This document shows positions 26,609-61,619 of a stretch of DNA of 64,000 nt, in pieces. The notes below the pieces were generated by a model. The model was not told the DNA's origin. It searched no databases and was given only the letters and a program-made list of their open reading frames with translations. The stretch's first letter is position 1. Every line of letters begins with the position of its first letter. This DNA comes from Haliotis rufescens (lineage: Eukaryota): NCBI RefSeq assembly GCF_023055435.1, contig NW_025963813.1, positions 12,710,001-12,774,000 of the forward strand, given 5' to 3'. A program made the position numbers and the translations under genes.

Positions 26609-26622
26609 ATGGCTGAAGCAAA
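26609..26622 (+). CDS. PGD: PGD coding exon 1 (MAEA+AA)
   Basis: ATGGCTGAAGCAAA|gtaagt; phase 2 matches exon 2; lies in a CpG-richer promoter region. Confidence 0.85.
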
Positions 26623-38600: not shown

Positions 38601-41600
38601 CTCACTGTATCATCAAACATTGATTTATTAATTCTCGTATCTCATCAGTGAGTCACATTCTAAGTCTGGTCATGTGGGGAAGTATTGTTACTGCTGGTAA
38701 AATGGGCACGTACACAGTGATAGACACATACACGAGCCCATAAGTACGAGACTACTGAAAGTTTAAAGGGATAAGGTTTTTTCAACGAAAATCGTTTATT
38801 TTCATGAACACTTGTCCAAAATAAGCTGCAGATTGTTGTTGGATGTGACCCATGGTGTCTACCCTGCAACATTCACAACACTGTTGTCATTCAGAACACC
38901 AGAATTGGCCTCAACATGTTGAAATCACTCGTGAAGATCCGGGTTAGAATAGTTCTTCTGTTATACAGAACACCAGAATTGGCCTCAACATGTTGAAATC
39001 ACTCGTGAAGATCCGGGTTAGAATAGTTCTTCTGTTATACAGAACACCAGAATTGGCCTCAACATGTTGAAATCACTCGTGAAGATCCGGGTTAGAATAG
39101 TTCTTCTGTTATACAGAACACCAGAATTGGCCTCAACATGTTGAAATCACTCGTGAAGATCCGGGTTAGAATAGTTCTTCTGTTATACAGAACACCAGAA
39201 TTGGCCTCAACATGTTGAAATCACTCGTGAAGATCCGGGTTAGAATAGTTCTTCTGTTATACAGAACACCAGAATTGGCCTCAACATGTTGAAATCACTC
39301 GTGAAGATCCGGGTTAGAATAGTTCTTCAGCAATCCATGCGACTAACGGGATCGGGTCGTCAAGCTCGCTGACTTGGTTGACGCATGTCATCGTTTCCCA
39401 AATGCATGGATCGATGCTCATGATGTCAATAAATGGGTCGTCTGGTCCAGACTCGATTATTTACAGACCGCCATCATATAGCTGGAATATTGCCGAGTGC
39501 TGCATTAAACAACAAACAAACAAAAGCATATTGAAATGATGGAGGTCAATGACAAGTTGATATCCCCATCATGGCTGACATGTGAATTTAAGTATGACCC
39601 AGTCCTTCTGCTTCATCAGTGTCACAGGGAGTTGAGTACAAATCAGTTGCAATATTTATGAGTCATTAACCTGTGAAAATAATGGGCCCAGGGTCAGAAA
39701 TATATGGCCAGGAACCTTATGTTGGTCAGAAATTTAGTCGTTTGTTTTGTTGAAGGGTCAATGATCCTGGCTGGACGTCCAAGCAGACAGAATCAATGAA
39801 TTAGAACTTGATTTTGGTCACTATTGCATTGAAAGTTTGTTTATGGCTATGGTTGTCATGGTTACAGGAGGTAAAAGATATAAATATGAAACAACATTGT
39901 CAGAGTCTGTTCCTAATGGATATGATACAAAACTCATTTTCAAAATAAATGTTAAACAAAACTTAAGTCAAAAGAAGATTATTAAACAATAAAGCATGTT
40001 GTTGATCAAACATTGTATTACCAGTACATGTATTTAAGATTACCAGGATTTTATAAACTGCAATTCATGATCGAATGAAATATTGTCAAATTTGAGTTGT
40101 CGGACATATATCAACACATGTGGTACATTTAACTTGTTATGTCTCGTATGGACATATATTGGATGATATTAAACATTAAATACTAAAAATATGCAATTGA
40201 TTTAATTCGTGTTCTAATACCACGACCTAAAAGGGCGGGGATATATAGCTAGCTATACCAAGGAATTCCGTCTGTCAGTCCATCCGTCCATCCAAGGACA
40301 TTTTTGTGTGCGACCTACAGCTTGAAAACTACTAAATAGATTCTTCTTCTTTTTATTTCTATATTTTGATTTTCTGAAAATATAAAGGGTTTTTTTTTCA
40401 GTTTTTTTACTCAGAATTTATTTAATTAGTCATTTTTTAGACCTACTACTTGAAAACTACTGCATGGATTCTTTTTCAAATTTTTGGAACAAATTTCATA
40501 CTAATCAGCTAATATAATGGGTGCAGTGCAAAAATTGATTTTGATATATGTATTTTTTTGATAATATTTTTTTTTATCTTGTGAACTTCAACATTTGTGT
40601 GACCTATAACATGTAACTTGAAAACTGCTAAATGGATTCTTATCAACATAACTTAATAAGACAAAAAGTGAGCAGGGCTGGCTAATACTTTGACATATTT
40701 CTAAGTTCAAAACATGAAAATAGCAATATTTTCTCAGCAAATCCATTTGTTGAAATAAAACTTTGCCTGCAGCTCTCCTATTGGTATAAAAACTGTCCCC
40801 AAAATTGGATAAGAATCCATTTAGCAGTTTTCAAGTTACATGTTATAGGTCACATCAACCAATTCAGCGAGCTTGACCACCCGATCCCGTTAGTCGCCTC
40901 TTACGACACAAGCATAGTCACCTTTTACAGCAAGCATGGGTTGCTGAAGACCTATTCTACATGTTCTACCCCGGATCTTCGCTGGGGGTCGGTGATGTGT
41001 GCAGGCAGCATGGGGGAAGTAAATTAACGTTGTTGACAAGGCTGTTGAGATTATGTATCAGGCTATATCTACACACCTACACAATATGCAGAGGAAGTGT
41101 ACATAGTACACCCTTGTCCAATATCACTTCCTGGTCTCTTTGTCACCATGGTTACTTGTTTTCATAAGCACTGGACGATGAATTGAGGGAGAAGTGACTG
41201 ATTAAAAAAATGATAGATTGATATTGCAAAAAATGTATCTTTGTTTGGTTAATGTGAGCATGTGTATTGTTTTCAAGGATTATCATGTCAATATGCAACT
41301 GTATTTTTATATTTCAGGGCTTGAAATTGGAAAAAAAATCAGGTGTTCCCCTGGGCAAGGGACCTGTATTTAAAGTTCACATTTTGCATTTAGGTGTGTC
41401 GTGTCTATATTACCCAATAATTACAGCAAAAGGCAGCTTATCCATGAGATCCAATGTTTAATGACATTAATGTTATGTGGTATAGTATAGTATAGTATAG
41501 TATAGAGAGGTCTTCACATGTGTAATATGCTTACTTATATAGGTCTTCTAGGTTTTTCACATCAGTCAGCAAGACATAACCATTTCCATTTGAGATGCAA

Positions 41601-44600
41601 GACCTTCTTGATATTACATCAAAATACAGAAAGACGACATTACATTCAAACACAAAGCAAACATTATATTCGGGATATTCTGTCAAAATACAGAAAGACG
41701 ACATTACATTCAAACACAAAGCAAAGATTATATTCGGGATATTCTGTCAAAATACAGAAAGACGACATTACATTCAAACCCAAAGCAAACATTATATTCG
41801 GGATAGTCTGTCAAAATACAGAAAGATGACATTACATTCAAACACAAAGCAAACATTATATTCGGGATATTCTGTCAAAAAACAGAAAGACGACATTACA
41901 TTCAAACACAAAGCAAACATTATATTCGGGATATTCCGTCAAAATACAGAAAGACGACATTACATTCAAACACAAAGCAAACATTATATTCGGGATATTC
42001 TGTCAAAATACAGAAAGGAGCAAATTTATTCAAATGTAAGATCCAGTTGATGGAAATCACTGATTATGCAGATTGATTTTATCACAGGAAGTTGTTTAGC
42101 GATAGTGGAACATGCGACTAATTTGCAAAACTCTTTCATTTCTCACTTTGATTTTGTCAAGACGTAAAGTAAACATTAACGTAAGTACTTTTAATGAAAA
42201 TGACCATGTCCACGAGGCACTGTACATAAAAGTTTTATGTACCATTTCCTATTTTATGTGTGCACTTGTAATTTTGAGCCCTGTAATTACAAGTATTTCT
42301 TTAGGAGTGAGCAGTAATTTCTTGGATAAAGTCATGTGTAGACAGAAGATATATATACAACCATATTCAATTGATTGGGTTTAGAGTTTCGGCTATGGTA
42401 TTGTTGTGTATTATGAAATGCATCGTGTTGTGGGACAGATATGGTGCATATCATGTTTGTGTTGAGTCCCTTATCCCAGGCCTATTGATTGTGGAGTCGT
42501 TGGTTCTGATGTTGGTCAGCAATGTTCCAGCAATGTGACTGCAGTCTGTAAATAATCGAGTCTGGAGCAGACAATCCAGTGATTAACTTCATGAGCATCA
42601 ATCTCTGCAATTTGGATACGATGACATGCATCAACCAAGTCAACAAGCCTGACCACCTGATCCTGTTAGTCTTCTCTTAAGACAAGTATAGTTGCTTTTT
42701 ACGGCAAGCATGGGTTGCTGAAGACCCATTCTACCGCGGATCTTCATGGGTCGTTGATTCTAATGATTCCTCAACACAGATAACATATTTATCTATATGT
42801 GCTCAGAGGCCAATAGACAGCCCCAAGTCAGCATCAAATGTCAGTCAAAATTCCTAAATTGGAATTAAGCCATTCCCAGTACATGCTGTTATCAGTTATA
42901 GTTGTTATAATATTAAAATTCAATGTTAAAATGTATGTGAATTTAAGAAAATAAATACTTTATACATATCTGAATCTTGAAAAAAATAATTATTTCTTTT
43001 CCCAATGTACCTGCTAGGGTCAGTTAGTGTTAAGTCCTGGGGACTCCCAGTAATACATTTTGAGGGTTCCAGGTTTTAAGCTGGGGACCTCTATTTTACC
43101 TATGGAATCTGGAAAAGGTTAAGATACGAACTGCCGCCATGCACTTATACTGTTCAAGATTTGAGGAACACTCAGTCACTCTATTATCCCGTAGCGGCAG
43201 CAAACTGACAACAATGAAACCCTGTTCGTACAAAAGTTTTGACATTTCTTGTTTAACAGAGTTTCATTGAATATATGATTTGGAAGTTATTTGCCCAGAC
43301 AATCTTCCTTCTCAATATTCTAACAAAAGGAGTGGTCGTTTATTGTGACACGCAGGTTACAATATATGAATAAGGTCCACGGTCCAAATTCTAAGAGTGG
43401 CGCTACGACCTCATGGCTGACAAGCCCTGTCTGCAGAAGCAAACTTCTGACAAAAATGTTGTCATCATGCAGACGAGTGGTGCTGACTTTTCACAACTGT
43501 CTCTGTACATCAACATCAAACAGTAAAAACCCCTGGCTGGTATATTTTCAAGAAATTGAGAACATTTTAATCAGTGAGGATGACAACTTATTGGCATTTT
43601 ATGTTTACGAGATGCACGTGTGAGAAATGGCCTTGAAACACTGTGATGTGATCCCTCTTCAAATGAAGTGGACCTTGTGTAGCTATGTGTTGATGTGTCC
43701 AAGGTGGAGCTAGTGTAATATTGTAGTGGCTGTGAAGATGTGTTGTAGGTGGAGCTAGTGTAATATTGTAGTGGCTGTGTTGATGTGTCCAAGGTGGAGC
43801 TAGTGTAATATTGTAGTGGCTGTGTTGATGTGTCCAGGGTGGAGCTAGTGTAATATTGTAGTGGCTGTGATGATGTGTTGTAGGTGGAGCTAGTGTAATA
43901 TTGTAGTGGTTGTGTTGATGTGTTGTAGGTGGAGCTAGTGTAATATTGTAGTGGCTGTGATGATGTGTTGTAGGTGGAGCTAGTGTAATATTGTAGTGGC
44001 TGTGTTGCTGTGTTGTAGGTGGACCTAGTGTTATACTGCAGTGGCTGTGTTGATGTGTTGTAGGTGGAGCTAGTGTAATATTGTAGTGGCTGTGTTGCTG
44101 TGTTGTAGGTGGAGCTAGTGTAATATTGTAGTGGCTGTGATGATGTGTTGTAGGTGGAGCTAGTGTAATATTGTAGTGGCTGTGTTGCTGTGTTGTAGGT
44201 GGAGCTAGTGTAATATTGTAGTGGCTGTGTTGATGTGTTGTAGGTGGAGCTAGTGTAATATTGTAGTGGCTGTGTTGATGTGTTGTAGGTGGAGCTAGTG
44301 TAATATTGTAGTGGCTGTGTTGCTGTGTTGTAGGTGGAGCTAGTGTAATATTGTAGTGGCTGTGATGATGTGTTGTAGGTGGAGCTAGTGTAATATTGTA
44401 GTGGCTGTGTTGCTGTGTTGTAGGTGGAGCTAGTGTAATATTGTAGTGGCTGTGTTGCTGTGTTGTAGGTGGAGCTAGTGTAATATTGTAGTGGCTGTGT
44501 TGATGTGTTGTAGGTGGAGCTAGTGTTATATTGTAGTGGCTGTGTTGCTGTGTTGTAGGTGGAGCTAGTGTAATATTGTAGTGGCTGTGTTGATGTGTTG

Positions 44601-47600
44601 TAGGTGGACCTAGTGTTATACTGCAGTGGCTGTGTTGATGTGTTGTAGGTGGAGCTAGTGTAATATTGTAGTGGCTGTGTTGCTGTGTTGTAGGTGGAGC
44701 TAGTGTAATATTGTAGTGGCTGTGTTGATGTGTTGTAGGTGGAGCTAGTGTAATATTGTAGTGGCTGTGTTGATGTGTTGTAGGTGGAGCTAGTGTAATA
44801 TTGTAGTGGCTGTGTTGCTGTGTTGTAGGTGGAGCTAGTGTAATATTGTAGTGGCTGTGTTGATGTGTTGTAGGTGGAGCTAGTGTAATATTGTAGTGGC
44901 TGTGTTGATGTGTTGTAGGTGGAGCTAGTGTAATATTGTAGTGGCTGTGTTGCTGTGTTGTAGGTGGAGCTAGTGTAATATTGTAGTGGCTGTGTTGCTG
45001 TGTTGTAGGTGGAGCTAGTGTAATATTGTAGTGGCTGTGTTGATGTGTTGTAGGTGGAGCTAGTGTAATATTGTAGTGGCTGTGTTGGTGTGTTGTAGGT
45101 GGAGCTAGTGTAATATTGTAGTGGCTGTGTTGATGTGTTGTAGGTGGAGCTAGTGTAATATTGTAGTGGCTGTGATGATGTGTTGTAGGTGGACCTAGTG
45201 TAATATTGTAGTGGCTGTGATGATGTGTTGTAGGTGGAGCTAGTGTAATATTGTAGTGGCTGTGTTGATGTGTTGTAGGTGGAGCTAGTGTAATATTGTA
45301 GTGGCTGTGTTGATGTGTTGTAGGTGGAGCTAGTGTAATATTGTAGTGGCTGTGATGATGTGTTGTAGGTGGAGCTAGTGTAATATTGTAGTGGCTGTGA
45401 TGATGTGTCCAAGGTGGAGCTAGTGTAATATTGTAGTGGCTGTGTTGATGTGTTGTAGGTGGAGCTAGTGTAATATTGTAGTGGCTGTGTTGATGTGTCC
45501 AAGGTGGAGCTAGTGTAGTATTGTAGTGGCTGTGTTGATGTGTCCAGGGTGGAGCTAGTGTAATATTGTAGTGGCTGTGATGATGTGTTGTAGGTGGAGC
45601 TAGTGTAATATTGTAGTGGCTGTGTTGCTGTGTTGTAGGTGGTTCCTTCAACCGGACTGTGTCCAGGGTGGACCTTGTGTAATATTGTAGTGGCTGTGTT
45701 GATGTGTTGTAGGTGGAGCTAGTGTAATATTGTAGTGGCTGTGATGATGTGTTGTAGGTGGAGCTAGTGTAATATTGTAGTGGCTGTGATGATGTGTTGT
45801 AGGTGGAGCTAGTGTAATATTGTAGTGGCTGTGTTGATGTGTCCAAGGTGGAGCTAGTGTAGTATTGTAGTGGCTGTGTTGATGTGTCCAGGGTGGAGCT
45901 AGTGTAATATTGTAGTGGCTGTGATGATGTGTTGTAGGTGGAGCTAGTGTAATATTGTAGTGGCTGTGTTGATGTGTTGTAGGTGGTTCCTTCAACCGGA
46001 CTGTGTCCAGGGTGGACCTTGTGTAATATTGTAGTGGCTGTGTTGATGTGTTGTAGGTGGTTGCCTTCAACCGGACTGTGTCCAAAGTGGAGGACTTCTT
46101 GGCAAAGGAAGCCAAGGGCACGAAGGTGATCGGCGCCAAGTCACTGGAGGAGATGGTGAAGTTGCTGAAGAAGCCACGGCGGGTTATGATGCTGGTCAAG
46201 GCTGGACAGGCAGTCGACGCCTTCATCGACAAACTGGTCAGATTTCAGGATAGCTTTCTACATTATTAAAACACACCCCTTTTGTTAGCAACATATAAAG
46301 ACAGATCATAATTACATCACATTCCTGGCACCAGAGTGAGTGAGTGAGTGAGTTATGTGTTTCCCTTCATTGTGTTTCAGTCGTGTCATTTCATTTTACG
46401 ACTGTTGTTAGCAATGCAGAACACTTCAAATGCTTTATACATACATGGAACCACCTCCGTGGTCTTGTGGTAGAGCGTCCGCCCGGAGAGCAGAAGGTCC
46501 GGGGTTCGATCCCCGGCCGCGTCATACCAAAAGACGTTAAAAGACGGTACTTGTTGTTATCCTGTCTGGCGCTCGGCATTAAGGGGCTAAAACAAGGACT
46601 GGTTAGCTCGGAGTCAGTATACTGTGTCTGAGTGGGGTATTCATGTTAAACTGCGGCATGGTATCTCGGTGAGCTAGCACTATAAATCGGCATCAGTCCA
46701 TACTAGTACAAGCAGCCACACAAACACACACACGTACATGCACGTCGCTATATAAGTGCAATAATCTTGGACGCGACGTTAAACCCAATTTCACCTCACC
46801 TTATACATACATAGAACACCATGGCATCCTCTTGGTTTTAGTCAAATATTTTGAAGATTTGACTTGGTAAATATTCTGTACTTGCCATTATAAGCACACA
46901 AGACATTTGATAACCTAAAATTGTTTTCAGAGATCGGAAGTAGTGCAGAAACTTAGTTCAAATGTTAATCAAATGTTAATGAAAATGAAACTTTTTCATA
47001 ATAGTTACTGGGCGATAGCATACTCCTTCAGCACTAATATTCACAAAACAATATGGACTGTGATGTAAACTTTCTTAGTAGGACATACTTATTAATATTA
47101 CTTACAGATTGCTTTAGGAGTTGGTCAGGGGTCTCTTATTGGAGAGGGGTTCTTAATACGGCAAATACTGCATGTCATACAAAAAGTTGAGATTGTGATT
47201 GTAACCTCCCTAAAGTAAGCATGGACAGTTACATTTCAGCGTGAAAAGGCAAACATCTTTAAAGAGCAACCTTCCGATGAAGATGTGTCACACCACATTT
47301 AAATCAGTCTTCATACTTGACGATGTGGATGGGTGGTCAAGCTGTTGCATATGGTTAATTGTCCCTGACCAGATAGAAATCAGCAGGAGCCCTCATTAAT
47401 GTCAACCATTATCACTGAAGTTTATCTTTCCATTTCTAAGTGAAGCTATGTGATCAGTGTAGTATACATGGCATAGGAGTCATTTGTCATTCATTGCCCA
47501 AATCATGCTGCTTGAATCTTTCCATTAGTGGAATGGAGACTGAGGAAACAAGCCATGCAGTGCTTTTGTTCATGGCCCAATGGAGATTATTACCTTAATG

Positions 47601-50600
47601 GCAGGCTAAGATATCAGTGGATGCCATCGATACCACACCTGAGTTTCACTTATATAGTCTGATAGACATGATATTTGCTGTATTCGCTGTAATAATCACC
47701 TTGTTCCATTTTGGCTCCCCTAACCAAATTCCAGACCAGGGCCCACTTGCACAAAGTGATCTTAGCGCTAAGATGATCGTAACTCCCATACTTTAACATA
47801 GGCTTACAATAGTCTTTGTGCTAAGATCGCTTTGTGCACGTGGGCCGAGTCTGTTAGTCATCATTGTAAGTGCAACCAATAAGAACAAATATTTACCGTC
47901 CATTTAAAAACTATATTAAAAAAATGTTAACAAATTTACCGTCCATATTGTATTGGTTTGTTTTTTTACAGAAAACGGAAGAGGTATATAATTGCATTGT
48001 AACTATTGGTGAAACATTCTGTTTGTTCACTACCGCAAAGTATCTAAAGACATTTCTAAGTGCATGGAGCTAATTACAGTGAATACAGTAAATGAAAGCA
48101 CTCCTTGTACGATCAACATGATCAGCAGCATTTTGGTTTTTTTTCAAAATCAACTTTGCTTGATGAAATGTGATATCCACTGAGAATGACTCTAACTAAT
48201 ATCAAAGTTACTCTTACAAATAGCTTCTCTAGTAACCAAGTGAATCCTTGGGGGTGTGGGTAACCTAGTCATCTAAGTAAGGTGCCGAAATTCACAGTGC
48301 GGAGTTGTGGCCCTTAGGCACACCAGATTCCTATGATTGTGGGTTCGAATCCTGGATTGCCCCGATTATGTTTCTAGGTTTGTCAGCACCATGGTAACGC
48401 TGTTTTCTTCATTGTTTTTAAGAGGGGGCACGGTCGGCCCAGTCGTCTAAGGCGCCGCGATTCGCTGTGCAGAGTTGTCCCTTGGGCACGCCAAAAACCT
48501 ATGATTGTGGGTTCGAATCCCGGTTCGCCCCAATTATGTTTCTAGGTTTGTCAGCACCATACCCATGCTCGTGGGTTTCACCGAAGTGGTAAACGTCTGA
48601 GACCTGCATCACTTCAGGTTTCCTCCCACATCAAGCTGACACACCGCGATATAACTGGAATACTGTTAAAAGCGGTGTTTAACCCAACTCACTCACTCAC
48701 TCACTCATTGTTCTTAATACAAGATACAAGTGCATAATGTATCCAATATGTGTTTTTCGTGAAATTTCCTGTATCCATTATGTGTTTTTCGTGAAATTTC
48801 CTGTTGGTAGAGACAATTATAACAATAGTCATGTGGTATGCGACACACTGTTTATAATTGCAAATATCAGACGGTTGTTATCATGTGTTGAATGTAATCA
48901 GTTTCATATTCATATTGAAGTGGACATATTAACTTGTCAAGTATAGTGACACACTGAGAGACTGAAGTCACACTTCAGTAATTTTTGGTACAATGTGTTA
49001 AGCCCATTTCTGGTGTTCCCCGCTGGATATAGCTGAACTATTGCTAAAAGCAGCAAAAAACCATACTCACTCACTACTAAAACTGAAAGTTAAATCTTCA
49101 GAAGACTGTGGATTATATAAAAACAAGGAAAGAAAAAAATCAATATCGGTTGGCCCTTCAATATTGAACAAAAAATAATTATAACTTGGGACAGATATAT
49201 CATTATGAGTTGACATGTATCAAAAGTGGTCGTGTGGTATACAACAAGCCAATTAAAAATCCAAATCAGGCTAGTGAGAGTGTTATGACTCATAACACCA
49301 AGATACTGTGGAATGGTTCCATAAACAGAATAGAGTGAACCTTACCAATGTTATTATCCCCTGCCACGTCATTCCATGGTGTATACCATGTTGTTCCATG
49401 CCATATACCATGTTATTCCAAGCTGTATCTTGTGTTATTCCAAGCCGTATACCACTTGATTCCAAGCTGTAGACCATGTTATTCCAAGCTGTAGACCATG
49501 TTATTCCAAGCCGTATACCACTTGATTCCAAGCTGCAGACCATGTTATTCCCTGCTGTAGATCATGTTATTCCAAGCCGAAGACCATGTTATTCCAAACT
49601 GTATAGCATGTTATTCCTAGCTGTATAGCATGTTATTCCAAGCTGTAGGCCATGTTTTTCCAAGCTGTAGACCATGTTATTCCCAGCTGTAAACCATGTT
49701 ATTCCAAGCTGTAGGCCATGTTATTCCAAGCTGTATAGCATGTTATTCCAAACTGTAGGCCATGTTATTCCAAGCTGTATAGCATGTTATTCCAAGCTGT
49801 AGACCTTGTTATTCCAAGCTGAATACCATGTTATTCCAAGCTGAAGACCATGTTATTCCAAGCTGTAGACCATGTTATTCCAAGCTGAATACCATGTTAT
49901 TCCCAGCTGAAGACCATGTTATTCCAAGCTGTAGACCTTGTTATTCCAAGCTGAATACCATGTTATTCCCAGCTGTGGACCATGTTATTCCCAGCTGTGG
50001 ACCATGTTATTCCAAGCTGTAGACCATGTTATTCCAAGCTGTATACCACTTTCTCTGTGTTGTCAGGTTCCTCTGTTGGAGAAAGGGGACATAATCATTG
50101 ATGGTGGCAACTCCGAATACCGAGACTCCAATGTAAGTAAACACTTGAATGTCCTGCCATCTAGATAGACGAAAACTGCCATAGTTTTCCCATCATGAGT
50201 TCCAGCAACACTCGATGCATCAGCACCAAGTCTGCAACAAATGTCAATAAGTAACAAATGGGAAGAAAACAAATTTAATGTCATATACTGAATGTGATAC
50301 TCCGTTAATGTCACTTGTATTGCACTGATAACAGGAGGAAGAGGAAAAGGTTCACGTTTACATTATCGCATTGAATGCAATATTAAAATACAGGTATCTC
50401 TAAATTAAGAAAATAAGTTTAGAAAATACCAATTTTGATCTTAATGACAATTTTTCCCAGTTTGCCTGCCAAGGGCACTTAGTTTGGAATCCTATATACT
50501 CCCTGTGTAAAGCCTATCTATAGCTGACTTGTAATGATATGCACGAACTCCTTTCTGCTGTGCTGGATATTTATTCAGGTAGAGACATTCATAATGATTT

Positions 50601-53600
50601 GATATTGTCAAGCTCTTCAATTTCTCATTACAGAGGAGAGCCAAATCCCTGGAAGAAAAGGGGCTACTTTTTGTTGGCAGTGGTGTTAGCGGTGGTGAAG
50701 ATGGTGCACGCTACGGCCCATCCCTCATGCCGGGAGGGTCGCCAGCAGCGTGGTGTGTGAATGTCTCCTTTCTACCATTAAGTTTACCTCACAGCAATTT
50801 TTTAATTTAGAAGTTACATCTTGTGTGCTTTGAATGTAGATCTTGATTACCTAGAGATTTAACTGTGCTAAATTGAATTTGGTACTGAATGTGCGAAATT
50901 TAAAGTTCTCTTCAAAGCTTGAAATTTATTCTCTTTGACGATTTGCCAAACATACTTTAAATATTGTAGAAACGGCAACTCTGCATTTTGTAATGTATAA
51001 TTTAGTCTACAATTATTTAAAAATGCCCCTCCATGATGACTGAGAAAGAAGAACTTTTCTTTATGAATATTAGCTTCTGCAGTGATGTTATCATATCGTC
51101 CAGTTAGAGGTGGTTATTATGATTTGATACCCCCAATTAACCAATCAGATTCATAAGAGGCGACTAACGGGATCGGGTGGTCAGGCTCACTGATTTTGTT
51201 GATGAATTTCACCGTATCCTAATTGCATGGATCAATGTTTCAGATGTCAATCACTGGATTGTCTCATCTAGACTCGATTATTTACAGACCGCCATCATAT
51301 CGCTGGAATATTGCCAAGTGCAGCGTTAAACAACAAACAAATAAACAAACATGGTAGAATCACTTCTGAAAAATATGTAGTACCATCATTGAGACAGAAA
51401 ATGATCTTCTCACTGAATCCTTTGACCTGTGTTTGCAGGCCGCACATCAAGGATATCTTCCAGGGTATATCAGCCAAGGTCGGCAAGGAGCCATGTTGTG
51501 ACTGGGTAGGTGAAACACAGATGGAACCATGCCTTGATCCAGAGACATCACTTCACCTTAAACTGTCATTTAATATACCAAACATACAGTATTCAACGTA
51601 ATAAGCACCCAGGGCGCTCTCAAAAATAGAAAAAGGGGCCTCTTATTAGAATATAGTTTTGGTAAGAAAAAAAGACAGAGTTGAAAGATTGTTAATATTG
51701 TGGTTTATGCGGACCGTCTAATATGATACAAAAGAAAAGTCTGTGCGTATTGTACACAACAGATATATTTTCCAGAATTTAAATGCCCATAATTAATGGT
51801 GCATTTAAGACACGAGTGCGTACTATGCACAAATAAATAAGTCTTGTGTACACTGATCAATTGGAAGGGGTGCTAATTGGGATGTTACACTGGCCAATAT
51901 ATTTATAGCAAATATCGTTGTGGGCGCTTATTAGAGTGGGGCGCTTATTACGTCGAATATAGTATGCAGTTGTACTTTAATTGATCATCAATAGGCAAGC
52001 ATTTCATTTTCACTTGTGAGATAGGATTGCCAAAAGGCAAGCTTGTTAATTTATGAATGTTTTATTAAAATTTAATTAATTTATAATGTTAAAAAGAATC
52101 AGTTCATTTCATAAAATGTGTTTTGGTGTGTTCAGATTTCCAACCTTTGAAGAACTTTGAAATTACAGCTTTGGCAGAAACAATGTCCTGTTTCTCTTCT
52201 GCCTCATTTCAGTCTTGGAAACAAGTTTGTATTGATGATGTATTGGTCCCAACTCCAGGACCCACTTGCAAAAAGCGTTCTTAGTGCTACAACTATTGTA
52301 AGCCTGTGTTAAAGTATGGTAGTTATGATCATCTTAGCGCTAAGATTCCTTTGTGCAAGTGGGCCCAGGAGTATTCGGGGCGTATGTCTTGTTTGTTTGT
52401 GGTGTTGATTTGTGTCTTCTCCGGTGTGCAGGTGGGCCCTGATGGAGCTGGTCACTTCGTGAAGATGGTGCACAACGGGATTGAGTACGGCGACATGCAG
52501 CTCATCTGTGAGGCCTACCACCTCATGAAGTCTGCTCTCGGCCTGTCACACCCGGAAATGGCAGATGTATGTAGTGTTTGACTTTCTTTCATTCAAATAA
52601 GGATGGACAGAAGATGCATATAACTGAAATAGGATTAGGCTTAAAAAAATAAAAGAATTGGTTCTGAGGCAATGACTTTTGAGAATATAGTGCATTTGGA
52701 CGGTGATTTAAAAAAAAAAAAAATTAAGTTTTTCAAACTTGTATGTAACCAAATAAACATTGTGTACCATCAACCTGGGAAAGAACCTCACTACATACAC
52801 AAGCATACAAATCCCAATTCCCAGCATGACCATAACGTGAGATGCATAGTCAAGCAGTGCGCATGTAAAGGGAAGTAACTGAGTACTATATTGGCTCTCA
52901 TTGATTTAAGATGTTACGATTTTTTTGTGTCTGTGAAAATGGAAATAAAAATGTGCGGCAGACTTTATGATGATGAGGGCGGTGCCTGAGAACCAAGATT
53001 TATTGTTTTTAGCCTTAGTTTAGTATTAGGACAGACTTCATTATTCTCTACTTCGGTTTTAAAGTTGACGATGATCAGAATTCTGCATGTAATGGATCAG
53101 TGGTCAGTGGTCCTGCTTTGTGAGGATAAGATTGATGATGGTTTGAGCTCAACACTTCCACCATATTCCAGCTATATACTGGTAGCTTATAAATAGCTAC
53201 GTCTTGAAAAAATAACCAGATAAATCCAGTGATTGAAAAGAGCAACACTGTATTTTATTGGTATTAATTTTCCACCTTTTTATTTTNNNNNNNNNNNNNN
53301 NNNNNNNNNNNNNNNNNNNNNNNNNNNNNNNNNNNNNNNNNNNNNNNNNNNNNNNNNNNNNNNNNNNNNNNNNNNNNNNNNNNNNNNNNNNNNNNNNNNN
53401 NNNNNNNNNNNNNNNNNNNNTCTCCCTCTGCCTCTCTCCCTCTCTCTGCCTCTCTCTCTCTCTCTGCCTCTCACTCTCTGCCTCTCACTCTCTGCCTCTC
53501 TCCCTCTGCCTCTCTGCCTCTCTCTGCCTCTCTCTCTCTCTATGCCTCTCACTCTCTGCCTCTCACTCTCTGCCTCTCTCCCTCTGCCTCTCTCTCTCTC

Positions 53601-56600
53601 TCTGCCTCTCTCTCTCTCTCTGCCTCTCACTCTCTGCCTCTCTGCCTCTCTCTGCCTCTCTCTCTCTCTATGCCTCTCACTCTCTGCCTCTCACTCTCTG
53701 CCTCTCTCCCTCTGCCTCTCTCTCTCTCTCTGCCTCTCTCTCTCTCTGCCTCTCACTCTCTGCCTCTCACTCTCTGCCTCTCTCCCTCTGCCTCTCTCCC
53801 TCTCTGCCTCTCTCTCTCCCTCTGCCTCTCACTCTCTGCCTCTCTCCCTCTGCCTCTCTCCCTCTCTCTGCCTCTCTCTCTCTCTCTGCCTCTCACTCTC
53901 TGCCTCTCACTCTCTGCCTCTCTCCCTCTGCCTCTCTCTCTCTCTCTGCTTCTCTCTCTCTCTGCCTCTCACTCTCTGCCTCTCACTCTCTGCCTCTCTC
54001 CCTCTGCCTCTCTCCCTCTCTCTCTCTCTGCCTATGTTAATCTTTAAACATTACATATAATTTATAAGAATTTTGCTAATTAGTCTGACTGTTTTCCTTG
54101 GAATATCAGGTACTTGATGACTGGAACAAGGGAGAGCTAAAATCCTTCTTAATTGAGATCACGAGGGACATCATGAAGTTCAAGGACGACAAGGGAGACT
54201 ACCTTGTAGAGAAAATAAGAGACTCAGCAGGCCAGGTAAGCAGCAGTGTAGAATTAATTACTCATAAAAAAAAATGGTCAGCTAAACATGACAACTTCCT
54301 TCCAAGGGGAAGTAAAGTGGTTGCCAGTCATTGGCAGGATCTGGGTTCTATTCTCCAAATGGTACAGTGTGTGGCGCCATTTGTGTATGTTTAATAGGCA
54401 TCCCCCTTTGTCAATTCTATTAGTGCCTTGGGCACTTTTTACAGTGATTAGGGGCGGTCGGGTAGCCTTGTTGTTAAAGCCTTCGGTCGTCACGTCGAAG
54501 ACCCGGGTTCGATTCCCGACGTAGGGTACAATATGTGAAGTCCATTTCTGGTGTCCTCCGCTGTGATATTGCTAAAAGTTTGCTAAAAGCGGCGTAAAAT
54601 CATACTCACTGACTATTACAGTGTTTACGGTACATTCTATTTGAATATTTTCTTTCAAGTTGTTGATAGTTTCCAATTTCGTCAATTTCAGAAAGGCACA
54701 GGGAAATGGACGGCCATTTCATCTCTGGAGTATGGAGTTCCTGTCACACTTATAGGTAGTGGAATCTTGCCAATGCGTAGTTAGAAGAGTGTTAACTTTC
54801 CATGCCTGTTCCCACAAATGATGATTCCTTAATTTATTCAAGAGGTTAGAGGTGGCACGGGTGGCCCAGTCGTCAAAGGCGCCACAATTTGCTGTACAGA
54901 GATGAGAGCCACATTATATCAACCATTCATCTCACTCATTCATTCATTCATTCACTAAGGGGTTAGAAGCTGATATTCAATATGGACGACTTGGCAGCCA
55001 TGTTGAAAATTCTATTTCTGGAGATTAATCAGCCATTTTTGAACAAATTTGGTATATGTTTAGTTTCTAGTGGGATTCAAACACATGTTCATATTTGCTT
55101 TTGCATATAAATATTAAATTTGACCTTGTTTTGACACTGATGGTGAGCATTCTAATATCAAGCATGACTTTTATGATATGACACAGCTGGAATATTGTTG
55201 ACTGCAGTGTAAAACAAGATTCACTCACAATACATTTCCTGTTTGTAGAAAAAATTAATTGTAATAAAAAAGCATTACTTTGGCACCCAGGTGAGGCTGT
55301 GTTCGCGCGCTGCCTGTCATCGCTAAAAGCGGAGCGCGAGCAGGCCAGCAAGCAGATCTCAGGCCCCAAGAGCAGCACCTACACTGGGGACAAGAAGAAG
55401 TTCATCGATGACATCAAACAGGTAATGTAGCTAGAAGCTGCAGACAAACCCTCGTATGGTTTATATGACAGATGCAAGTCGGTTCTTCAAAGGTATCCCA
55501 AGGGCATGTAGATTTTCAGGCTTTGTAAGTGTGTCCTTGTGTTATCACAATTCACATGGGGCGGTTGGGGAGCCTAGTGGTTAAAGCGTTCGGTCGTCAC
55601 GCCGAAGACCCGGGTTCGATTCCCGACATTGGTACAATGTGTGAAGCCCATTTCTGGTGTCCCCCGCTGTGATATTGCTGGAATATTGCAAAAAGTGGCG
55701 TAAAACCATACTCACTCACTCACTCACTATCACCATTCACCCTAAAAACTTCACATTATTAACATTTCTGGAAAAAAATTGAATTGGGGGTTTTCGTTTT
55801 CACTGCTTAATAGTTCTTTCTTAACTTGGTATGGCCCTCATTAAAGGTTGGATAAATACACTACTATGGAATACCTGATTTTTTAATATCCCTTGACAGA
55901 TTAACTCATGTAAAATGAAAAAAATCAGATCGTCCTCAGCTTTTTTAGTTGTATATGAATGGAGTGTATTGGAATTTTAGGGGTGGTTGGGTAGCCGAGT
56001 GGTATAAGCATTGGCTTGTCACGCAGAAGACCCTGGTTCGATTCCCCACATGGGTGCAATGTGTGAAGCCCATTGTCCCGTGTCCCCCGCCGTGATATTG
56101 CTGGAATATTGCTAAAAGCGGAATAAAATCATATTCACTCATTCGCTATTGGTATGTAGCTACACCATTGTTACATGTAGTCAAAGAATTTTGTGTACTG
56201 ATAACAGAGTGAAAGTTAGCCAGTTGTTGTTGCCGTGTTTGTTGCTTATTCAACAATAAGTAAACAGTTCTTTGGATGAAAAATGTACCAATCAATCATT
56301 GATGAAATCAATTTATGTAATTGATAACACTAACAATAAGTGACAGATTTGTTATTTCTCTAGTGGGTCAATCACTGTGGTGGGTCAGTCCCTGTGGGGA
56401 GTCGGTCCCTGTGGGGAGTCGGTCCCTGTGGGGAGTCAGTCCCTGTGGTGGGTCGGTCCCTGTGGGGAGTCAGTCCCTGTGGTGGGTCGGTCCCTGTGGT
56501 GGGTCAGTCCCTGTGGGGAGTCAGTCCCTGTGGTGGGTCAGTCCCTGTGGGGAGTCGGTCCCTGTGGTGGGTCAGCTCCTGTGGGGAGTCGGTCCCTGTG

Positions 56601-59600
56601 TATTCTGACCATGTTGCTGTGTGTCCCCAGGCGCTGTACGCCAGCAAGATCGTGTCCTACGCCCAGGGATTTATGTTGATGCGGGAGACAGCCAAGGAAC
56701 TGAATTGGAAACTTAACTTTGGTGCAGTGGCACTAATGTGGAGAGGAGGCTGCATTATCAGAAGGTAATATGTCTGCACAGAACCTCACTTGTGTTCCTG
56801 TTTGTCCTTCTATCAGATACGATTCCATCAGATCTCTATGGACAGAGTGTACAGAGAGAGAGTGGAAGGTCAGTGGTTTGGCAGTTAATGATAGTACTTG
56901 TCACTGTGCCTGGTGCTTGGCATTAGGGAATAAAACAAGGATTTTTTGGCTTGGTGTCATTATTCTGTGGTTGAGTGGGGTATCCTTGTAAACTGTTGCA
57001 TGGTATCTGAGTGGACTAGCACTATGAAACTGGCTTTAGTTTGTACTAGTACAGGTAGCCAAATACACATAATTGCATATTGTTATGTTAGTGAAACAAT
57101 CTTGAACACAATGTTTAACAGCATTTAACATCACTTTCTGTTTTCATTATCTTTGAATGATTGAGGCCTCTGCTGTTGAATCAGTGTCACTGTTAAATGT
57201 TGAGGAATTTGTCACTGTTAAACTGAGGAATTTGCCACTGTTAAACTAAGGGATTTGCCACTGTTAAACTAAGGGAATTGACACTATTAAACTTTGAAAA
57301 TTTGTCATTGTTAAACGTTGAGGGATTTGTCACTGTTAAACGTTGAGGGATTTGTCACGATTAAACCCTGTGTTTCAGCGTGTTCCTTGGCAACATCAAA
57401 CAGGCATTTGACAAGAACCCAGAGCTGAGTAATCTCCTCTTGGACGACTTCTTCAAGAAAGCGATTCAGAATTGTCAGGTGAGAGATACAATTTACCTCG
57501 GAAACTGCTGTACCTTAGAGCTGCTTTATGTATGGGATACAGACATTTTTATGCTTTTGATGTGGACCAAAAGTGGCATTAATCTTGAATTTGAATGAAT
57601 TGTAAGCTCTTGTTCTTGGTCCAATTCTAAACACTTTGATTGTCTTAAGTTTGTGTCGAAGAATGGAAATTGATTGGCTTAGCATTTAGATCTGTATGGA
57701 ATGCAATGATTGTCTTAAATCTCTCAGGGAATTAGGCTCTAGCCTAAGCAGTAAGATGTCTTTGTGGAATGCTAATATTTACATAGATCTATGTTAAAGC
57801 ATGAGCGTTACCATGGTAACTATCGTTTTATCACTATGATTCATCATAAGTGTGTGTGTTAAAGTACACTGAACAAAATAGTGATTTCAAATTATCTTAG
57901 CATTAAGGTTGCTGTCTCCATGATTGTCATAAGTGTATGGTAAGTAGTGGACTTCATACCACTAATATTACTCTGTTATCTCATTGATTATGTCAAATAT
58001 ATTATGAAGTATGGGAGTTACGATCATCACATTCTGGGTCATACATGCACCAGCTGGAGAGTTACCTCAGCTGTCACATCCCATGTTTCATCCCATGTTT
58101 CATCCCATGTTTCATCCCATATTTCATCCAATATTTCATCCCATATTTCATCCCAATAAGACTGTAATAATGTACAGGGGCGGTCGGGTAGCCTAGTGGT
58201 TAAAGCGTTCGCTCATCACGCCAAAGACCCGGGTTCGATTCCCGACATGGGTACAACGTGTGAAGCCCATTTCTGGTGTCCCCCGCCGTGATATTGCTGG
58301 AATATTGCTAAAAGCGGCGAAAAAACATACTCACTCATTACTAAAACTGAAAGTTAAACCTTCAGAAAACTGTGGATTATATAAAAACAAGGAAAGAAAA
58401 AAATATCTGTTGGCCCTTCAATATTGAACAAAAAATAATTATAACTTGGGACAGATATATCATCATGAGTTCACATGTATCAAAAGTGGTCGTTTGGTAT
58501 ACAAGCCAATTAAAAATCCAAATCAGGCAAGTGAGAGTGTTATAAGTGAGCGGTGTTTAACCCAACTCACTCACTCACTCACTCACTCATTGTTCTTAAT
58601 ACAAGATACAAGTGCATAATGTATCCATCATGTGTTTTTCGTGAAATTTCCTGTTGGTAGAGACAATTATAACAATAGTCATGTGGTATGCGACACACTG
58701 TTTATAATTGCAAATATCAGACGGTTGTTATCATGTGTTGAATGTAATCAGTTTCATATTCATATTGAAGTGGACATATTAACTTGTCAAGTATAGTGAC
58801 ACGCTGAGAGACTGAAATCACACTTTAGTAATTTTGGGTACAATGTGTTAAGCCCATTTCTGGTGTTCCCAGCTGGATATAGCTGAACTATTGCTAAAAG
58901 CAGCGAAAAACCATACTCACTCACTACTAAAACTGAAAGGTAAACCTTCAGAAGACTGTGGATTATATAAAAACAAGGAAAGAAAAAAATATCGGTTGGC
59001 CCTTCAATATTGAACAAAAAATAATTATAACTTGGGACAGATATATCATCATGAGTTCACATGTATCAAAAGTGGTCGTGTGGTATACAAGCCAATTAAA
59101 AATCCAAATCAGGCTAGTGAGAGTGTTATCTCACTCACTCACTCACTCACTCACTCACTCACTCACTCACTCACTCACTCACTGTAATGATGTACAGGAT
59201 GCCTGGAGACGAGTGGTGTCGACAGCAGTGTTGCTCGGAATCCCGACACCGGCCTTCAGCACAGCTCTAGCGTTCTTCGATGGGTACCGCAGTGCCAGAC
59301 TGCCAGCCAACCTCATCCAGGTATGTTCAGGATCGCGTTGACTTGATATTCTTAGAGGCCACACAGCAGTGGACCAGTTCCTTGCGTTTGTAATTATCTC
59401 CCCTTGGGTGTGCAGGATCAGAGAAGGTTCCCAGTATCCAGTATTTGTTATAAGATCAGACTAAAGAGGATCTGAGACGTGTTCAGGAGGAGGGCGATAT
59501 CTTGCATGTGGGTGCTGTTGAACACGGCCAACCGCATGATCACATCCGTAGTTTGCCTAGTAATCCAAGATGGCGTCACATATTGTTCAAATGGTTGCCT

Positions 59601-60657
59601 TTGACCGGATTGAACCAATGTCTAAAGGTTAATCTTTTAGACCAGTCACTACCATTGAAAAGCTTCATTACATCTCATTATTAAATGTGTAAACCTATAA
59701 CACTTGTGGACAAGGCTGTTTTGATCCCCGGCGACGCCATTTTTTATGCTGTGCCTTGAGAACGACTATATTTCTTTGGAAACAGCTTTTGGGCTAAGGT
59801 AAGATAGAGGGGCATGGGTGACCCTGTCATCTGAGGTGCCACAGTTTGCTGTGCAGAGTTGCCTCCCTTGGGAACACCAGAAACCTGTGAGTGTAGGTTG
59901 GAATTCTGGTTCGCTCTGATTATGTTTCTTGGTTTGTCAGCATTATACTCTTGATAGTGGGTTTCACCATTGTGGTAAGTGTTTGAGACCTGGGCTTTAC
60001 TCCCACATAAAACTGTTCAAAGTATCTTTAAACCCAACTCACTGACTGAGTTATCACTAAACCAGCATTAAACAGATCAGATGCCAGCCTCTAATTGACA
60101 CTGGGTCAACGGCTTGCACAAAATTAATAGACACCCAAGCATCTAATAGAGGAGAGGTTCGTTGAAGTAACCCTTGTGTAAATTAAACAGGTTCAGAGGT
60201 CCAAACTGCCAGAAATGGAGGGGTACCCAGGTTCGATTTCCGACATGTGTACAATGTGTGAAGCCCATTTCTGGTGTCCCCCGCCCTGATATTGCTGGAA
60301 TATTGCTAAAAGCAGCTAAAAACCATACTCACTCACTCACTCACTCTCATGTCAACTCTGAAATGTCTTTATATATTTTTGTTCACACTTAAAAACCAGG
60401 ATTTCAAGAAAACCCATTCGCCACATAATGCCAAATGTCTGTCCTTGGAAACACAAGCTTTGACACCCTGTAATGTATTTGCAACAAATCTGATCCTAAT
60501 GCTTATTTATTTTAAAGAAATTATACTATTCTTTCAGGCACAGAGAGATTATTTCGGAGCCCACACGTACGAGCTTCTGGACAAGCCCGGCACCTTTGTT
60601 CACACCAACTGGACTGGCCATGGAGGGAGTGTTTCTTCATCCACATACGACGCTTGA
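26609..60657 (+). CDS. PGD: 6-phosphogluconate dehydrogenase, decarboxylating; 14 coding exons: 26609-26622, 37440-37515, 46057-46236, 50067-50132, 50634-50752, 51439-51505, 52432-52566, 54110-54235, 54692-54755, 55291-55421, 56631-56764, 57379-57478, 59198-59320, 60538-60657 (1455 nt, 484 aa)
   Basis: Manual splicing gives a continuous ORF: [41 protein letters not shown]...[14 protein letters not shown]...[19 protein letters not shown]...[25 protein letters not shown]...[10 protein letters not shown]...[10 protein letters not shown]...[19 protein letters not shown]...[18 protein letters not shown]. These are hallmark 6PGD motifs; all introns are GT-AG with consistent phases. Confidence 0.98.
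27665..27839. mobile_element. Short MITE with TA TSD
   Basis: ta|cagttaactacggttataac ... gttataaccgtagtttactg|ta. Confidence 0.82.
28462..28617. repeat. ~155-bp near-perfect palindrome (hairpin)
   Basis: agaggttatcacgcg...tttagc[gagccttggcga]gctaaa...gcgtgataacctct. Confidence 0.9.
31184..31450 (-). pseudogene. Decayed Tc1-like transposase fragment
   Basis: Frameshifted [12 protein letters not shown] / [17 protein letters not shown] / [23 protein letters not shown], matching the Tc1 WxxVxFSDESxF..DG.xxVWRR motif. Confidence 0.8.
32387..32645 (+). mobile_element. SINE-like family C (further copies at ~39297-39525, 40855-40990 minus, 42516-42752 minus, 51153-51350, 63597-63813)
   Basis: Consensus match. 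Confidence 0.88.
33032..33380 (+). mobile_element. tRNA-derived SINE family D (~350 bp)
   Basis: gaccgcctctgtggtctagtggtagagcg...ggttcgatccccgg; (cacct)n tail; TSD atttagaccaaga. Confidence 0.9.
34184..34679 (-). mobile_element. Possible solo LTR
   Basis: TG...CA-like ends, TATA (ctatataag) and AATAAA in order on the minus strand; no clear TSD. Confidence 0.3.
36385..36592. repeat. 28-bp minisatellite, ~7 copies
   Basis: acctgatgttgtgaactatgctgactta. Confidence 0.93.
37015..37370. mobile_element. Same pogo-type MITE, opposite orientation
   Basis: Reverse-complement homology to 11958-12290; TA flanks. Confidence 0.8.
37440..37515 (+). CDS. PGD: PGD exon 2 ([25 protein letters not shown])
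   Basis: tttcag|A...ACA|gtaagt; NADP-binding GxAxMG motif. Confidence 0.97.
38882..39328. repeat. 74-bp tandem repeat x6 (flank plus family C head)
   Basis: cagaacacc at 38892, 38966, 39040, 39114, 39188, 39262. Confidence 0.95.
41620..42017. repeat. 64-bp tandem repeat, ~6 copies
   Basis: caaaatacagaaagacgacattacattc... at period 64. Confidence 0.95.
43686..46056. repeat. 45-bp minisatellite, ~50 copies, abutting PGD exon 3
   Basis: Unit gtggagctagtgtaatattgtagtggctgtgttgatgtgttgtag. Confidence 0.97.
46057..46236 (+). CDS. PGD: PGD exon 3 ([10 protein letters not shown]...AFIDKL)
   Basis: tgtag|GTG...CTG|gtcaga. Confidence 0.97.
46449..46800 (+). mobile_element. SINE family D
   Basis: Matches the 33032 copy; TSD ttatacatacat. 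Confidence 0.9.
47738..47846. mobile_element. ~110-bp MITE monomer (second copy at 52256-52368)
   Basis: ggcccacttgcacaaag ... ctttgtgcacgtgggcc TIRs; the 52256 copy has cag on both sides (PIF/Harbinger-like CWG). Confidence 0.75.
48424..48705 (+). mobile_element. SINE family B (source of the transduced segment); other copies at ~6031-6235, 35715-35792, 48250-48392, 59808-60045, 61130-61380
   Basis: Consensus match; TSD tcattgtt(t/c)ttaa. Confidence 0.9.
49365..50049. repeat. 22-bp minisatellite, ~30 copies
   Basis: accatgttattccaagctgtag. Confidence 0.95.
50067..50132 (+). CDS. PGD: PGD exon 4 ([22 protein letters not shown])
   Basis: gtcag|GTT...AAT|gtaagt. Confidence 0.97.
50634..50752 (+). 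CDS. PGD: PGD exon 5 ([39 protein letters not shown])
   Basis: ttacag|AGG...TG|gtgtgt. Confidence 0.97.
51439..51505 (+). CDS. PGD: PGD exon 6 ([22 protein letters not shown])
   Basis: ttgcag|G...TGG|gtaggt. Confidence 0.97.
51587..51962. mobile_element. Same pogo-type MITE
   Basis: Homology to 11958-12290; TA flanks. Confidence 0.82.
52432..52566 (+). CDS. PGD: PGD exon 7 ([23 protein letters not shown]...EMAD)
   Basis: gtgcag|GTG...GAT|gtatgt; contains the catalytic K and E motif. Confidence 0.97.
53287..53420. other. Assembly gap (N run)
   Basis: Run of n. Confidence 0.99.
53421..54032. repeat. (CT)n / ctctgcct compound microsatellite following the assembly gap
   Basis: Direct reading. 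Confidence 0.97.
54110..54235 (+). CDS. PGD: PGD exon 8 ([18 protein letters not shown]...IRDSAGQ)
   Basis: atcag|GTA...CAG|gtaagc. Confidence 0.97.
54451..54612 (+). mobile_element. SINE family A (PGD intron 8)
   Basis: Consensus match; TSD ttacagtg(a/t)tta. Confidence 0.88.
54692..54755 (+). CDS. PGD: PGD exon 9 ([21 protein letters not shown])
   Basis: tttcag|AAA...G|gtagtg. Confidence 0.97.
55291..55421 (+). CDS. PGD: PGD exon 10 ([12 protein letters not shown]...FIDDIKQ)
   Basis: cccag|GT...CAG|gtaatg. Confidence 0.97.
55557..55727 (+). mobile_element. SINE family A (another copy at ~55980-56145)
   Basis: Consensus match; TSD tatcac(a/c)attcac. Confidence 0.88.
56362..56599. repeat. 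17-bp G-rich minisatellite
   Basis: ctgtggggagtcggtcc variants. Confidence 0.93.
56631..56764 (+). CDS. PGD: PGD exon 11 ([14 protein letters not shown]...MWRGGCIIR)
   Basis: cccag|GCG...AG|gtaata. Confidence 0.97.
57185..57368. repeat. 23-25-bp degenerate minisatellite
   Basis: atttgtcactgttaaac(gt)tgagg. Confidence 0.88.
57379..57478 (+). CDS. PGD: PGD exon 12 ([25 protein letters not shown]...NCQ)
   Basis: tttcag|C...CAG|gtgaga. Confidence 0.97.
58077..58155. repeat. 12-bp tandem repeat
   Basis: catcccatgttt / catcccatattt. Confidence 0.88.
58177..58340 (+). mobile_element. SINE family A heading a composite insertion
   Basis: Consensus match. Confidence 0.9.
58549..59128 (+). repeat. 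~580-bp intragenic duplicate of 48671-49285; 58340-58543 is a further copy of its last ~200 bp
   Basis: Near-identical sequence from agcggtgtttaacccaactc to gtgagagtgttat. Confidence 0.93.
59129..59183. repeat. (CTCA)n microsatellite, interpreted as a retro-insertion tail
   Basis: Direct reading. Confidence 0.95.
59198..59320 (+). CDS. PGD: PGD exon 13 (DAWRRVV...LPANLIQ)
   Basis: gtacag|GAT...CAG|gtatgt. Confidence 0.96.
60538..60657 (+). CDS. PGD: PGD exon 14 ([12 protein letters not shown]...SSSTYDA*)
   Basis: tttcag|GCA...TGA. Confidence 0.97.
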   Translation, partial: AQRDYFGAHTYELLDKPGTFVHTNWTGHGGSVSSSTYDA

Positions 60658-61619
60658 TACGACAAAACCACAGACCGCTCAACATTTGCAACCCAATCAC
60701 ACTTTTCTGTATATTATTTTTACCTGATGAAGAACAACTGATCGTATTTCCAGAAATCATTCTTCTTTAGGCTTATTATAAATGGCATTGGATGCGAAAA
60801 ACATACACTGAACTGTTTTCTGAGTGATATTGTTTAATATTGACTAATATTATTAAAATATTATGAATGATGTGTTGATCTTGTAGGTGTAAATTTTGTT
60901 CTCAGATGCAACATGTATAATAAGCCATCCCTTCATATTTTGTAAATTTTTCAAATTTTTATTTCAAGAAGTTGGCTTTGAAAATTCCAGAATTTGTTAA
61001 GGGAAAATGTTGTTCATTACAACATTACATGAAGCATTGTTTGTTCTGCAACTAACCATACGATTTACGCTTCCGGACTTACATTGACATTGTTATGTTT
61101 ATTTAATCAACACTTGTTTTGTGCTTGTCAGTTAGGCGCCGCGATTTGCTATGCAGAGTGGCGTCCCTTGGGAACATCAGAAACCCATGATTGTGGGTTC
61201 GAATCTCCAATCACCCTGATTATGTTTCTAGGTTTGTCAGCACCATACCCGTGCTCGTGGGTTGCACCGAAGTGGTAAACGTCTGAGACCTGCATCACTT
61301 CGGGCTTTCCTCCCACATTAAGCTGACACGCCGTGATATAACTGGAATACTGTTCACAGCAGCGTTAACCCAACTCAATCACCACTATGACCCAGTTATA
61401 CTATTTACAGGAACTGTTGGAGGAAGATCGGATAAACAAGAGCTTGTTTGTATGTCTCTTGATGCATTCATGTATTCTGTATCTCACTATGACCAATATA
61501 TATAGGTAGGTGTCTGAGCGGACGGTGTGGTTACTCCTCACTCAATCTCCTTGATCATCCAGTGTGTGTCCATCTTAGTAAGATATATGCTCTGGACCTG
61601 TTCAGCACCATAGCTTTGT

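Follow-up and report, generated by a model that had tools for sequence, protein, structure and literature searches.

Insert at the exon-13 acceptor

Here, we describe a composite insert at a splice acceptor of the 6-phosphogluconate dehydrogenase (6PGD) gene of the abalone Haliotis rufescens. The window, i.e., the whole stretch of DNA that was analysed, comprises 64,000 nucleotides (contig NW_025963813.1, positions 12,710,001 to 12,774,000 of the forward strand), and all coordinates refer to it. Exon 1 of 6PGD lies at 26609 and the remaining 13 exons were placed by tblastn, so that 59198 opens exon 13, in agreement with the exon numbering of a first-pass annotation of this DNA. The exons agree with the annotated H. 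rufescens protein at three sites that distinguish the H. cracherodii protein. Intron 3, which is central to the origin of the insert, extends over 46240-50066. The gene and the parts of the insert are as follows.

26609..60657, + strand: 6PGD gene, Haliotis, 14 exons, host of the insert
57379..57478, + strand: exon 12, 100 nt
58077..58155, + strand: 12-bp minisatellite that forms the displaced region upstream; relative to the decoy AG, TTCAT stands at -28 and -40
58161..58177, + strand: left copy of the target-site duplication (TSD), decoy acceptor
58177..58340, + strand: full-length SINE A, with its tRNA head at 58182-58253, turning source-type within about 58318-58340
58336..58543, + strand: copy 1, derived from 49072-49286; it differs from the source by 8 substitutions and 2 indels and has 5 private substitutions
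58544..58548, + strand: 5-nt linker AAGTG, which repeats copy 1 sequence 15 nt upstream, including the private A of copy 1
58549..59129, + strand: copy 2, derived from 48671-49286; it differs from the source by 11 substitutions and 4 indels and is probably a later, polymorphic layer
59130..59180, + strand: (CTCA)n tail, 51 nt, 13.5 copies; candidate branch region; probably 11 nt in organism B
59181..59197, + strand: right copy of the TSD, the acceptor used in the mRNA contig
59198..59320, + strand: exon 13, first base 59198

The anatomy of the insert is real, as its TSD, its parts, its donor in intron 3 and the spliced junction can each be observed. The TSD is the exon-13 acceptor itself, as had been proposed. 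Its two copies match at 16 of 17 positions, or at 17 of 18 if the next G is included, and the 17-mer has no further copy within three mismatches on either strand of the whole window. The full SINE A reported for the insert is likewise present, and its head matches tRNA (RF00005) with 31.1 bits against a gathering score of 29. The decoy AG at 58177 exists, but its G doubles as the first G of the SINE; several other SINE A copies also show an A directly 5' of the GGGG head. Alignment of 58549-59129 with 48671-49286 confirms that the second piece of the insert is the 3' end of SINE B plus its downstream flank. The preceding copy of about 200 bp from intron 3 is there as well, but does not simply start at 49075. 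It runs in register from a 5'-truncated SINE A in the source, and the insert changes from young-type SINE A to the donor flank within roughly the final 20 bases of the element. The 5-nt linker between the two copies had been overlooked, and the clean join of the tail at a source gactca has to be given up, since the source reads GTTAT-GA-CTCA and the insert GTTAT-CTCA. Judged by its sequence, the insert may most simply be described as an ordinary SINE with intron-3 DNA placed in its tail.

An Rfam match to snoZ178 was rejected, as it equals the CTCA repeat and lies far under the gathering score. The TSD and the tRNA head spoke against a Helitron-like rolling circle, which was not retained as an explanation. 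A metagenome scan for the start of exon 13 gave no matches, and a scan with the SINE A pattern gave one contig (L001).

SINE families

SINE A is about 160 bp long and ends in (ACTC)n. It shows the features of a tRNA-derived SINE, namely a tRNA-related head, a TSD, a 3' simple-repeat tail and a high copy number. TSDs of 12-15 bp were found around five of eight other full-length SINE A copies and around three of four SINE B copies tested, and most of them overlap the tail by one to four bases. The ACT overlap at exon 13 is thus a normal signature of the SINE family. As far as the available portions of their descriptions go, the Haliotis SINE families MESC-Hdi, HalSINE1 and LP-SINE resemble SINE A as abalone SINEs with tandem-repeat ends (PMC4758252, PMC4824008). 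The same descriptions set SINE A, with its (ACTC)n end, apart from the MESC SINEs, which have a (CACCT)n end and an internal (CA)n, and on this basis SINE A was matched to none of the named families.

In the window, matches to SINE A or SINE B lie on the plus strand in 23 cases and on the minus strand in one, and each of the 12 within the gene is sense, a count that includes one duplicate and short partial matches. Read in antisense, the SINE tail forms a donor-like GTGAGT array, which could be a cause of selection against antisense copies. Mammalian SINEs are depleted within 100 bp of exons and human SINEs are sense-biased at 20-200 bp, according to the accessible text of one study (PMC3088655).

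Donor segment in intron 3

The features of the donor region are as follows.

48423..48708, + strand: complete SINE B with a 13-bp TSD and the 3' stem ACACCGC/GCGGTGT
48671..49286, + strand: donor segment, comprising the SINE B 3' end, its flank, a truncated SINE A and a 210-bp flank
about 48985..49075, + strand: 5'-truncated SINE A remnant, homology for the in-register joining with the insert
49280..49298, no strand: perfect palindrome with 9-bp arms and a 1-nt loop, the left arm containing the common end point of both copies (49286)

The SINE B at 48423 has its own TSD (matching at 12 of 13 positions), and the segment is low-copy in four sequencing runs, with a summed depth near that of its flanks (tens); the summed depth of the SINE is in the millions. 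Intron 3 is therefore the donor, as the first-pass annotation had argued, and the same depth near that of the flanks makes a repeat-family donor unlikely. For the truncated source SINE A, no TSD could be identified, the best candidate being 6 bp. The start of copy 2 coincides with the 3' arm of the terminal stem of SINE B. The palindrome at its other end was noticed post hoc and is one of four with arms of at least 9 bp in the 64 kb; its folding energy is unremarkable (z -0.01).

A classical 3' transduction, in which transcription of a SINE in intron 3 would have read through into its flank, was one of the two routes originally suggested for the insert and is very unlikely. The sense orientation, the flank following a SINE tail and the lack of a T4 run in 49076-49286 all agree with it, but neither a promoter-bearing source upstream nor a read-through path free of Pol III terminators was found. 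The source SINE A is headless, the SINE of the insert is of the young consensus type at diagnostic sites to about 58317, and the body of SINE B is absent from the insert; read-through from SINE B would meet T5 runs at 48753, 48785 and 48982, i.e., three before 49286. Two copies would not be expected either.

Copies 1 and 2 differ from each other by 2.9% and each from the source by 1.9-3.8%, and they have five states in common against the source in the window. Copy 2 has one private substitution in its last 208 bp versus five in copy 1, an asymmetry of 5:1 that is non-significant (p 0.22; Fisher 0.12-0.30). The SINE body diverges from its nearest copy at 6/162 positions, and copy 1 from its source at 8/208.

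Probable short and long forms in sequencing runs

Four of 24 public runs (X2, X7, X12 and X15) were compared over 56610-60750. X7 is labelled as this species, and X12 represents organism B, a related species. Contig ends and depths were interpreted via simulated k=31 graphs, and contig depth is not equal to copy number. The SINE saturates the joints, so that 1528 joints and 235531 pieces lie outside the listing, and all results on joints refer to those listed. The simulation predicts a repeat node at 58077-58106, and contigs of X2 and X7 do end at 58106, which supports this reading of the graphs.

Contig 4 of X12 stops seven letters beyond 59122, at 59129, which is the end of the copied segment, and the exon-13 contig 5 of that run has 53 unplaced letters 5' of 59193. 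In the simulation, 53 letters result from an 11-nt tail, 82 from an empty allele and 39 from a long tail; in X12, 53 letters could equally come from an empty allele whose minisatellite differs. The 11-nt tail is in phase with the 51-nt tail. Relative to the flanks, the depth of the 5' part of copy 2 is 0.90 in X12, 0.99 in X7 and 2.26 in X2, the expected values being 1.73 if copy 2 is present and 1.00 if it is not; by depth, copy 2 is absent in X7 and X12 and present in X2. Contig 16 of X2 begins at 58955, a merge point that needs the copy 1 variant, and passes through branch points predicted by the simulation. Depth in X2 is zero over 58417-58555, where the long-form junction is expected. Both this gap and the passage through the branch points are explicable solely by graph simplification, and X2 is possibly not independent of the assembly. 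A 196-nt contig of X15 is identical to copy 2 across a 32-bp deletion, and two shallow contigs of this run (depth 2.9 and 3.9) match copy 2, hinting at the long allele.

On this indirect evidence, the short form, composed of the SINE, 210 bp and an 11-nt tail, is likely present in organism B. The long form, with a further 586 bp, is likely polymorphic in this species and found in only some runs. The four runs are compatible with both a gain and a later collapse of the 586 bp. None of the joints listed corresponds to an empty allele or to splicing at 58178, which is uninformative either way. That the long form is an assembly artefact is very improbable. Its junction is indeed found in none of the contigs listed, but the mutual divergence of the copies and their divergence from the source, the merge point specific for copy 1 together with the 2.26-fold depth in X2, and the X15 contig across the 32-bp deletion all speak against it.

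The 32-bp deletion corresponds to a tandem duplication in the donor (48738-48804) that is missing from copy 2 and apparently present in source-type contigs of X7 and organism B, which implies a loss in copy 2 or in its donor allele. X7 and organism B also have many intronic variants in common (56776-57970, 59542), which suggests shared polymorphism or introgression. Around 59863-59896, contig 6 of organism B has about 5 kb of unplaced letters 5' of 59896, which suggests that intron 13 of that organism bears a large insertion.

Splicing of exon 13

Contig 8 of X15, presumably of RNA type, has a depth of 171 and no differences from the window in the three listed exon pieces. Position 56762 lies at its letter 1126 and 59195 at letter 1226, which places the last 2 nt of exon 11 and the 100-nt exon 12 before 59198. 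The contig also spans exon 14, with a spacing consistent with exon 12 being joined to 59198. In this one presumptive RNA contig, of unassigned allele, the exon-proximal AG is the acceptor that is spliced. Use of the decoy acceptor would hit a stop at codon 38.

Since the insert makes up all of -18 to -1020 in the long allele, any branch point at the normal distance has to fall within the tail, where seven CTCAC stand at -17 to -41. By position, the branch point is likely in the CTCA tail. The first-pass annotation had gone further and held that the tail works as a branch and pyrimidine element and that the insert is tolerated for this reason. The tail does occupy the usual branch zone, but the motif match is weak, since YTNAY precedes 43% of random YAGs across the gene span (302 of 708), and YTRAY is absent before the used AG. 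The tail is not the immediate pyrimidine tract, because the 17 nt adjoining the AG are unchanged. As the cause of tolerance it is unproven: besides YTNAY being common, four of the 12 other acceptors of the gene do without it, and the displaced region also had TTCAT. The context of the used acceptor is richer in pyrimidines than that of the decoy (0.53 vs 0.35) and has a longer AG-free zone (72 vs 15 nt), while the decoy context may have decayed after the insertion.

Exon definition is an established principle of splicing, and decoys are nothing unusual in 6PGD. Upstream of exon 3, the final 10 nt of intron 2 occur in 43 exact copies, and exon 3 is intact in the annotated H. rufescens protein despite these 43 exact decoy acceptors. 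Splicing of exon 3 past the decoys points to exon definition, which could be a sufficient reason for tolerance at exon 13. There, the duplication would have preserved the last 17 nt of the acceptor, and the CAG|GTATGT donor would define exon 13, with no strong donor following the decoy. The approach through the tail, with its longer AG-free stretch and more pyrimidines than the displaced sequence, may have contributed. At 58523-58535, the private A of copy 1 creates CAG|GCAAGT, a GC-type donor consensus; together with the decoy AG, it could delimit a stop-containing cryptic exon at 58178-58526.

Origin of the insert

The explanation that we prefer, and to which we give an even chance, is a layered history, in which target-primed reverse transcription (TPRT) with a detour onto pre-mRNA was followed by a DNA template switch that added 586 bp, plus slippage of the tail. 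We infer the order of the layers, the type of template and the branch site. In the first step, TPRT would have been primed at the target ACT, which matches the (ACTC)n tail; TSD, head and tail are observed, and the route between them is a putative one. The enzyme would then likely have moved to pre-mRNA of the same gene at 49286 and copied 210 nt of it before going back to the SINE RNA where the remnant in intron 3 offers the same SINE 3' end. The product would have been the short form, i.e., the SINE, 210 bp and a short tail. Template switching, the other route suggested originally, is thus still plausible for the first layer, and we slightly favour this RNA detour over a later DNA-repair switch with the same product.

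In the second step, which would have taken place in some lineages of this species, DNA synthesis may have stalled at the boundary of segment and tail and slipped back 15 nt, which would account for the linker. A switch to 48671 in intron 3 and a homology-guided return would then have added 586 bp without a new TSD or tail. Extension of the tail would be due to slippage. Layer 2 has a local template and a templated linker with microhomology and lacks a TSD and tail of its own, as is characteristic of templated insertion at the DNA level (MMBIR/SDSA-like). The donor lies 9 kb away, and AAGTG(AG) repeats nearby copy-1 sequence and ends in the AG common to 48671.

The first-pass annotation had assumed a single event, which run depths and contig ends render doubtful. 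In such a scenario, one TPRT event would have proceeded by end-to-end jumps on intron-3 RNA (48671-49286, read 1.4 times) and then on SINE RNA, and the short forms would be due to collapse between direct repeats. We regard this as possible, with a probability clearly below that of the layered history. Both copies end exactly at 49286, as a fixed RNA 3' end would, every part is sense, and copy 2 extends from the 3' stem arm of SINE B into a palindrome arm. The five states that copies 1 and 2 have in common against the source in the window would also fit, and L1 insertions from multiple templates in the same orientation appear in the available text of a previous report (PMC11702581). However, three or four jumps and an independent collapse in organism B and X7 would be needed, and the linker repeats the private A of copy 1, albeit a single base. 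In addition, the source-type contig of X7 has the T of copy 2 at 58826 and organism B has C, which suggests an allele of this species as the origin of copy 2, although bubble popping could mimic this pattern.

A plain SINE A could also have been inserted first, with both intron-3 pieces added later by DNA repair as breaks in the tail invaded the nearest SINE 3' end. This proposal coincides with the layered history apart from step 1. It needs no RNA template of the gene and reuses the existing TSD and tail, and the switch within the last 20-odd bases of the SINE, with a donor 9 kb off in cis, is in keeping with it. We nevertheless consider it rather unlikely, since the similar divergence of SINE body (6/162) and copy 1 (8/208) would fit one moment of origin and a plain-SINE allele was not seen at the site in the four runs.

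Relation to known insertions

The closest precedent, as far as the accessible part of its description goes, is the canine merle SINE-Cf, a tRNA-derived element at an intron/exon boundary of dog PMEL with a 15-bp TSD that holds the original acceptor (PMC7349775). The abalone insert shares with it the tRNA-derived SINE at an exon boundary, the acceptor held in the TSD and a slippage-prone tail in the zone of the splice signals. While merle is antisense and its poly(T) serves as pyrimidine tract, the abalone insert is sense and its (CTCA)n tail may supply the branch A. Merle shows length-dependent cryptic splicing, whereas no mis-splicing was seen among the contigs listed here, and the intron-3 copies distinguish the abalone insert from what is described of merle (PMC7349775).

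Chimeric non-LTR insertions are likewise flanked by TSDs and composed of several pieces in the same orientation, and are ascribed to template switching (PMC13174262, PMC11702581). In the portions of these reports available, they involve mammalian L1 with small RNAs or mRNAs, whereas here a SINE is combined with an intron of the gene that it entered, via homology at the SINE 3' end. Templated insertions of the MMBIR type, which occur as germline variants, are similar in their nearby template, their multi-switch junctions and the return to the original template (PMC8421209). The available text of that study describes short insertions with templates within about 100 bp, compared with 586 bp, a distance of 9 kb and a return via long homology at the 6PGD locus. 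Among the titles listed in a literature search, none concerned the locus or a sense microsatellite SINE tail as branch point.

Gene-wide patterns

Tandem arrays end at most 35 nt upstream of, or overlap, six of the 13 acceptors of the gene (plus the decoy), and none of the 13 donors has the start of an array nearby.

37382-37439, 43686-46091, 49364-50048, 56363-56600, 57185-57366, 58077-58155, 59130-59183: tandem arrays near acceptors

With random YAGs as null, the mean was 0.36 and none of 100000 draws reached 5, a threshold that was chosen after looking and applies to one gene.

It is intriguing to speculate, though we think it unlikely, that the (ACTC)n SINE family is a portable branch-point cassette, that reverse transcriptase captures nascent host pre-mRNA in cis and that the zone before acceptors is a hotspot of repeat replacement. 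A target preference for ACT...AG|G would suit acceptors, the sense tail would provide CTCAC, and antisense GTGAGT arrays would be purged.

If our interpretation of exon 13 is right, the locus would represent a natural wholesale swap of a branch region for a transposon-derived repeat in a housekeeping gene that is still spliced, and also repeated copying from intron to intron via shared SINE ends. Short, long and tail-length alleles would allow the effects of tail length and decoy AG on splicing to be compared in a mollusc. Being one locus, without a phenotype and closely preceded by the dog case, it is an anecdote, and the gene-wide patterns (arrays at acceptors, sense-only SINEs) may matter more.

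Further observations concern other acceptors of 6PGD. A 45-bp minisatellite at 43686-46091 multiplies the acceptor junction of exon 3, with a partial copy of exon 3 at 45644, and the acceptor of exon 2 has two such copies upstream. At 53287-54033, a 134-base gap of N is followed by a CT-rich tract of 600 bp that stops 76 nt short of the acceptor of exon 8.
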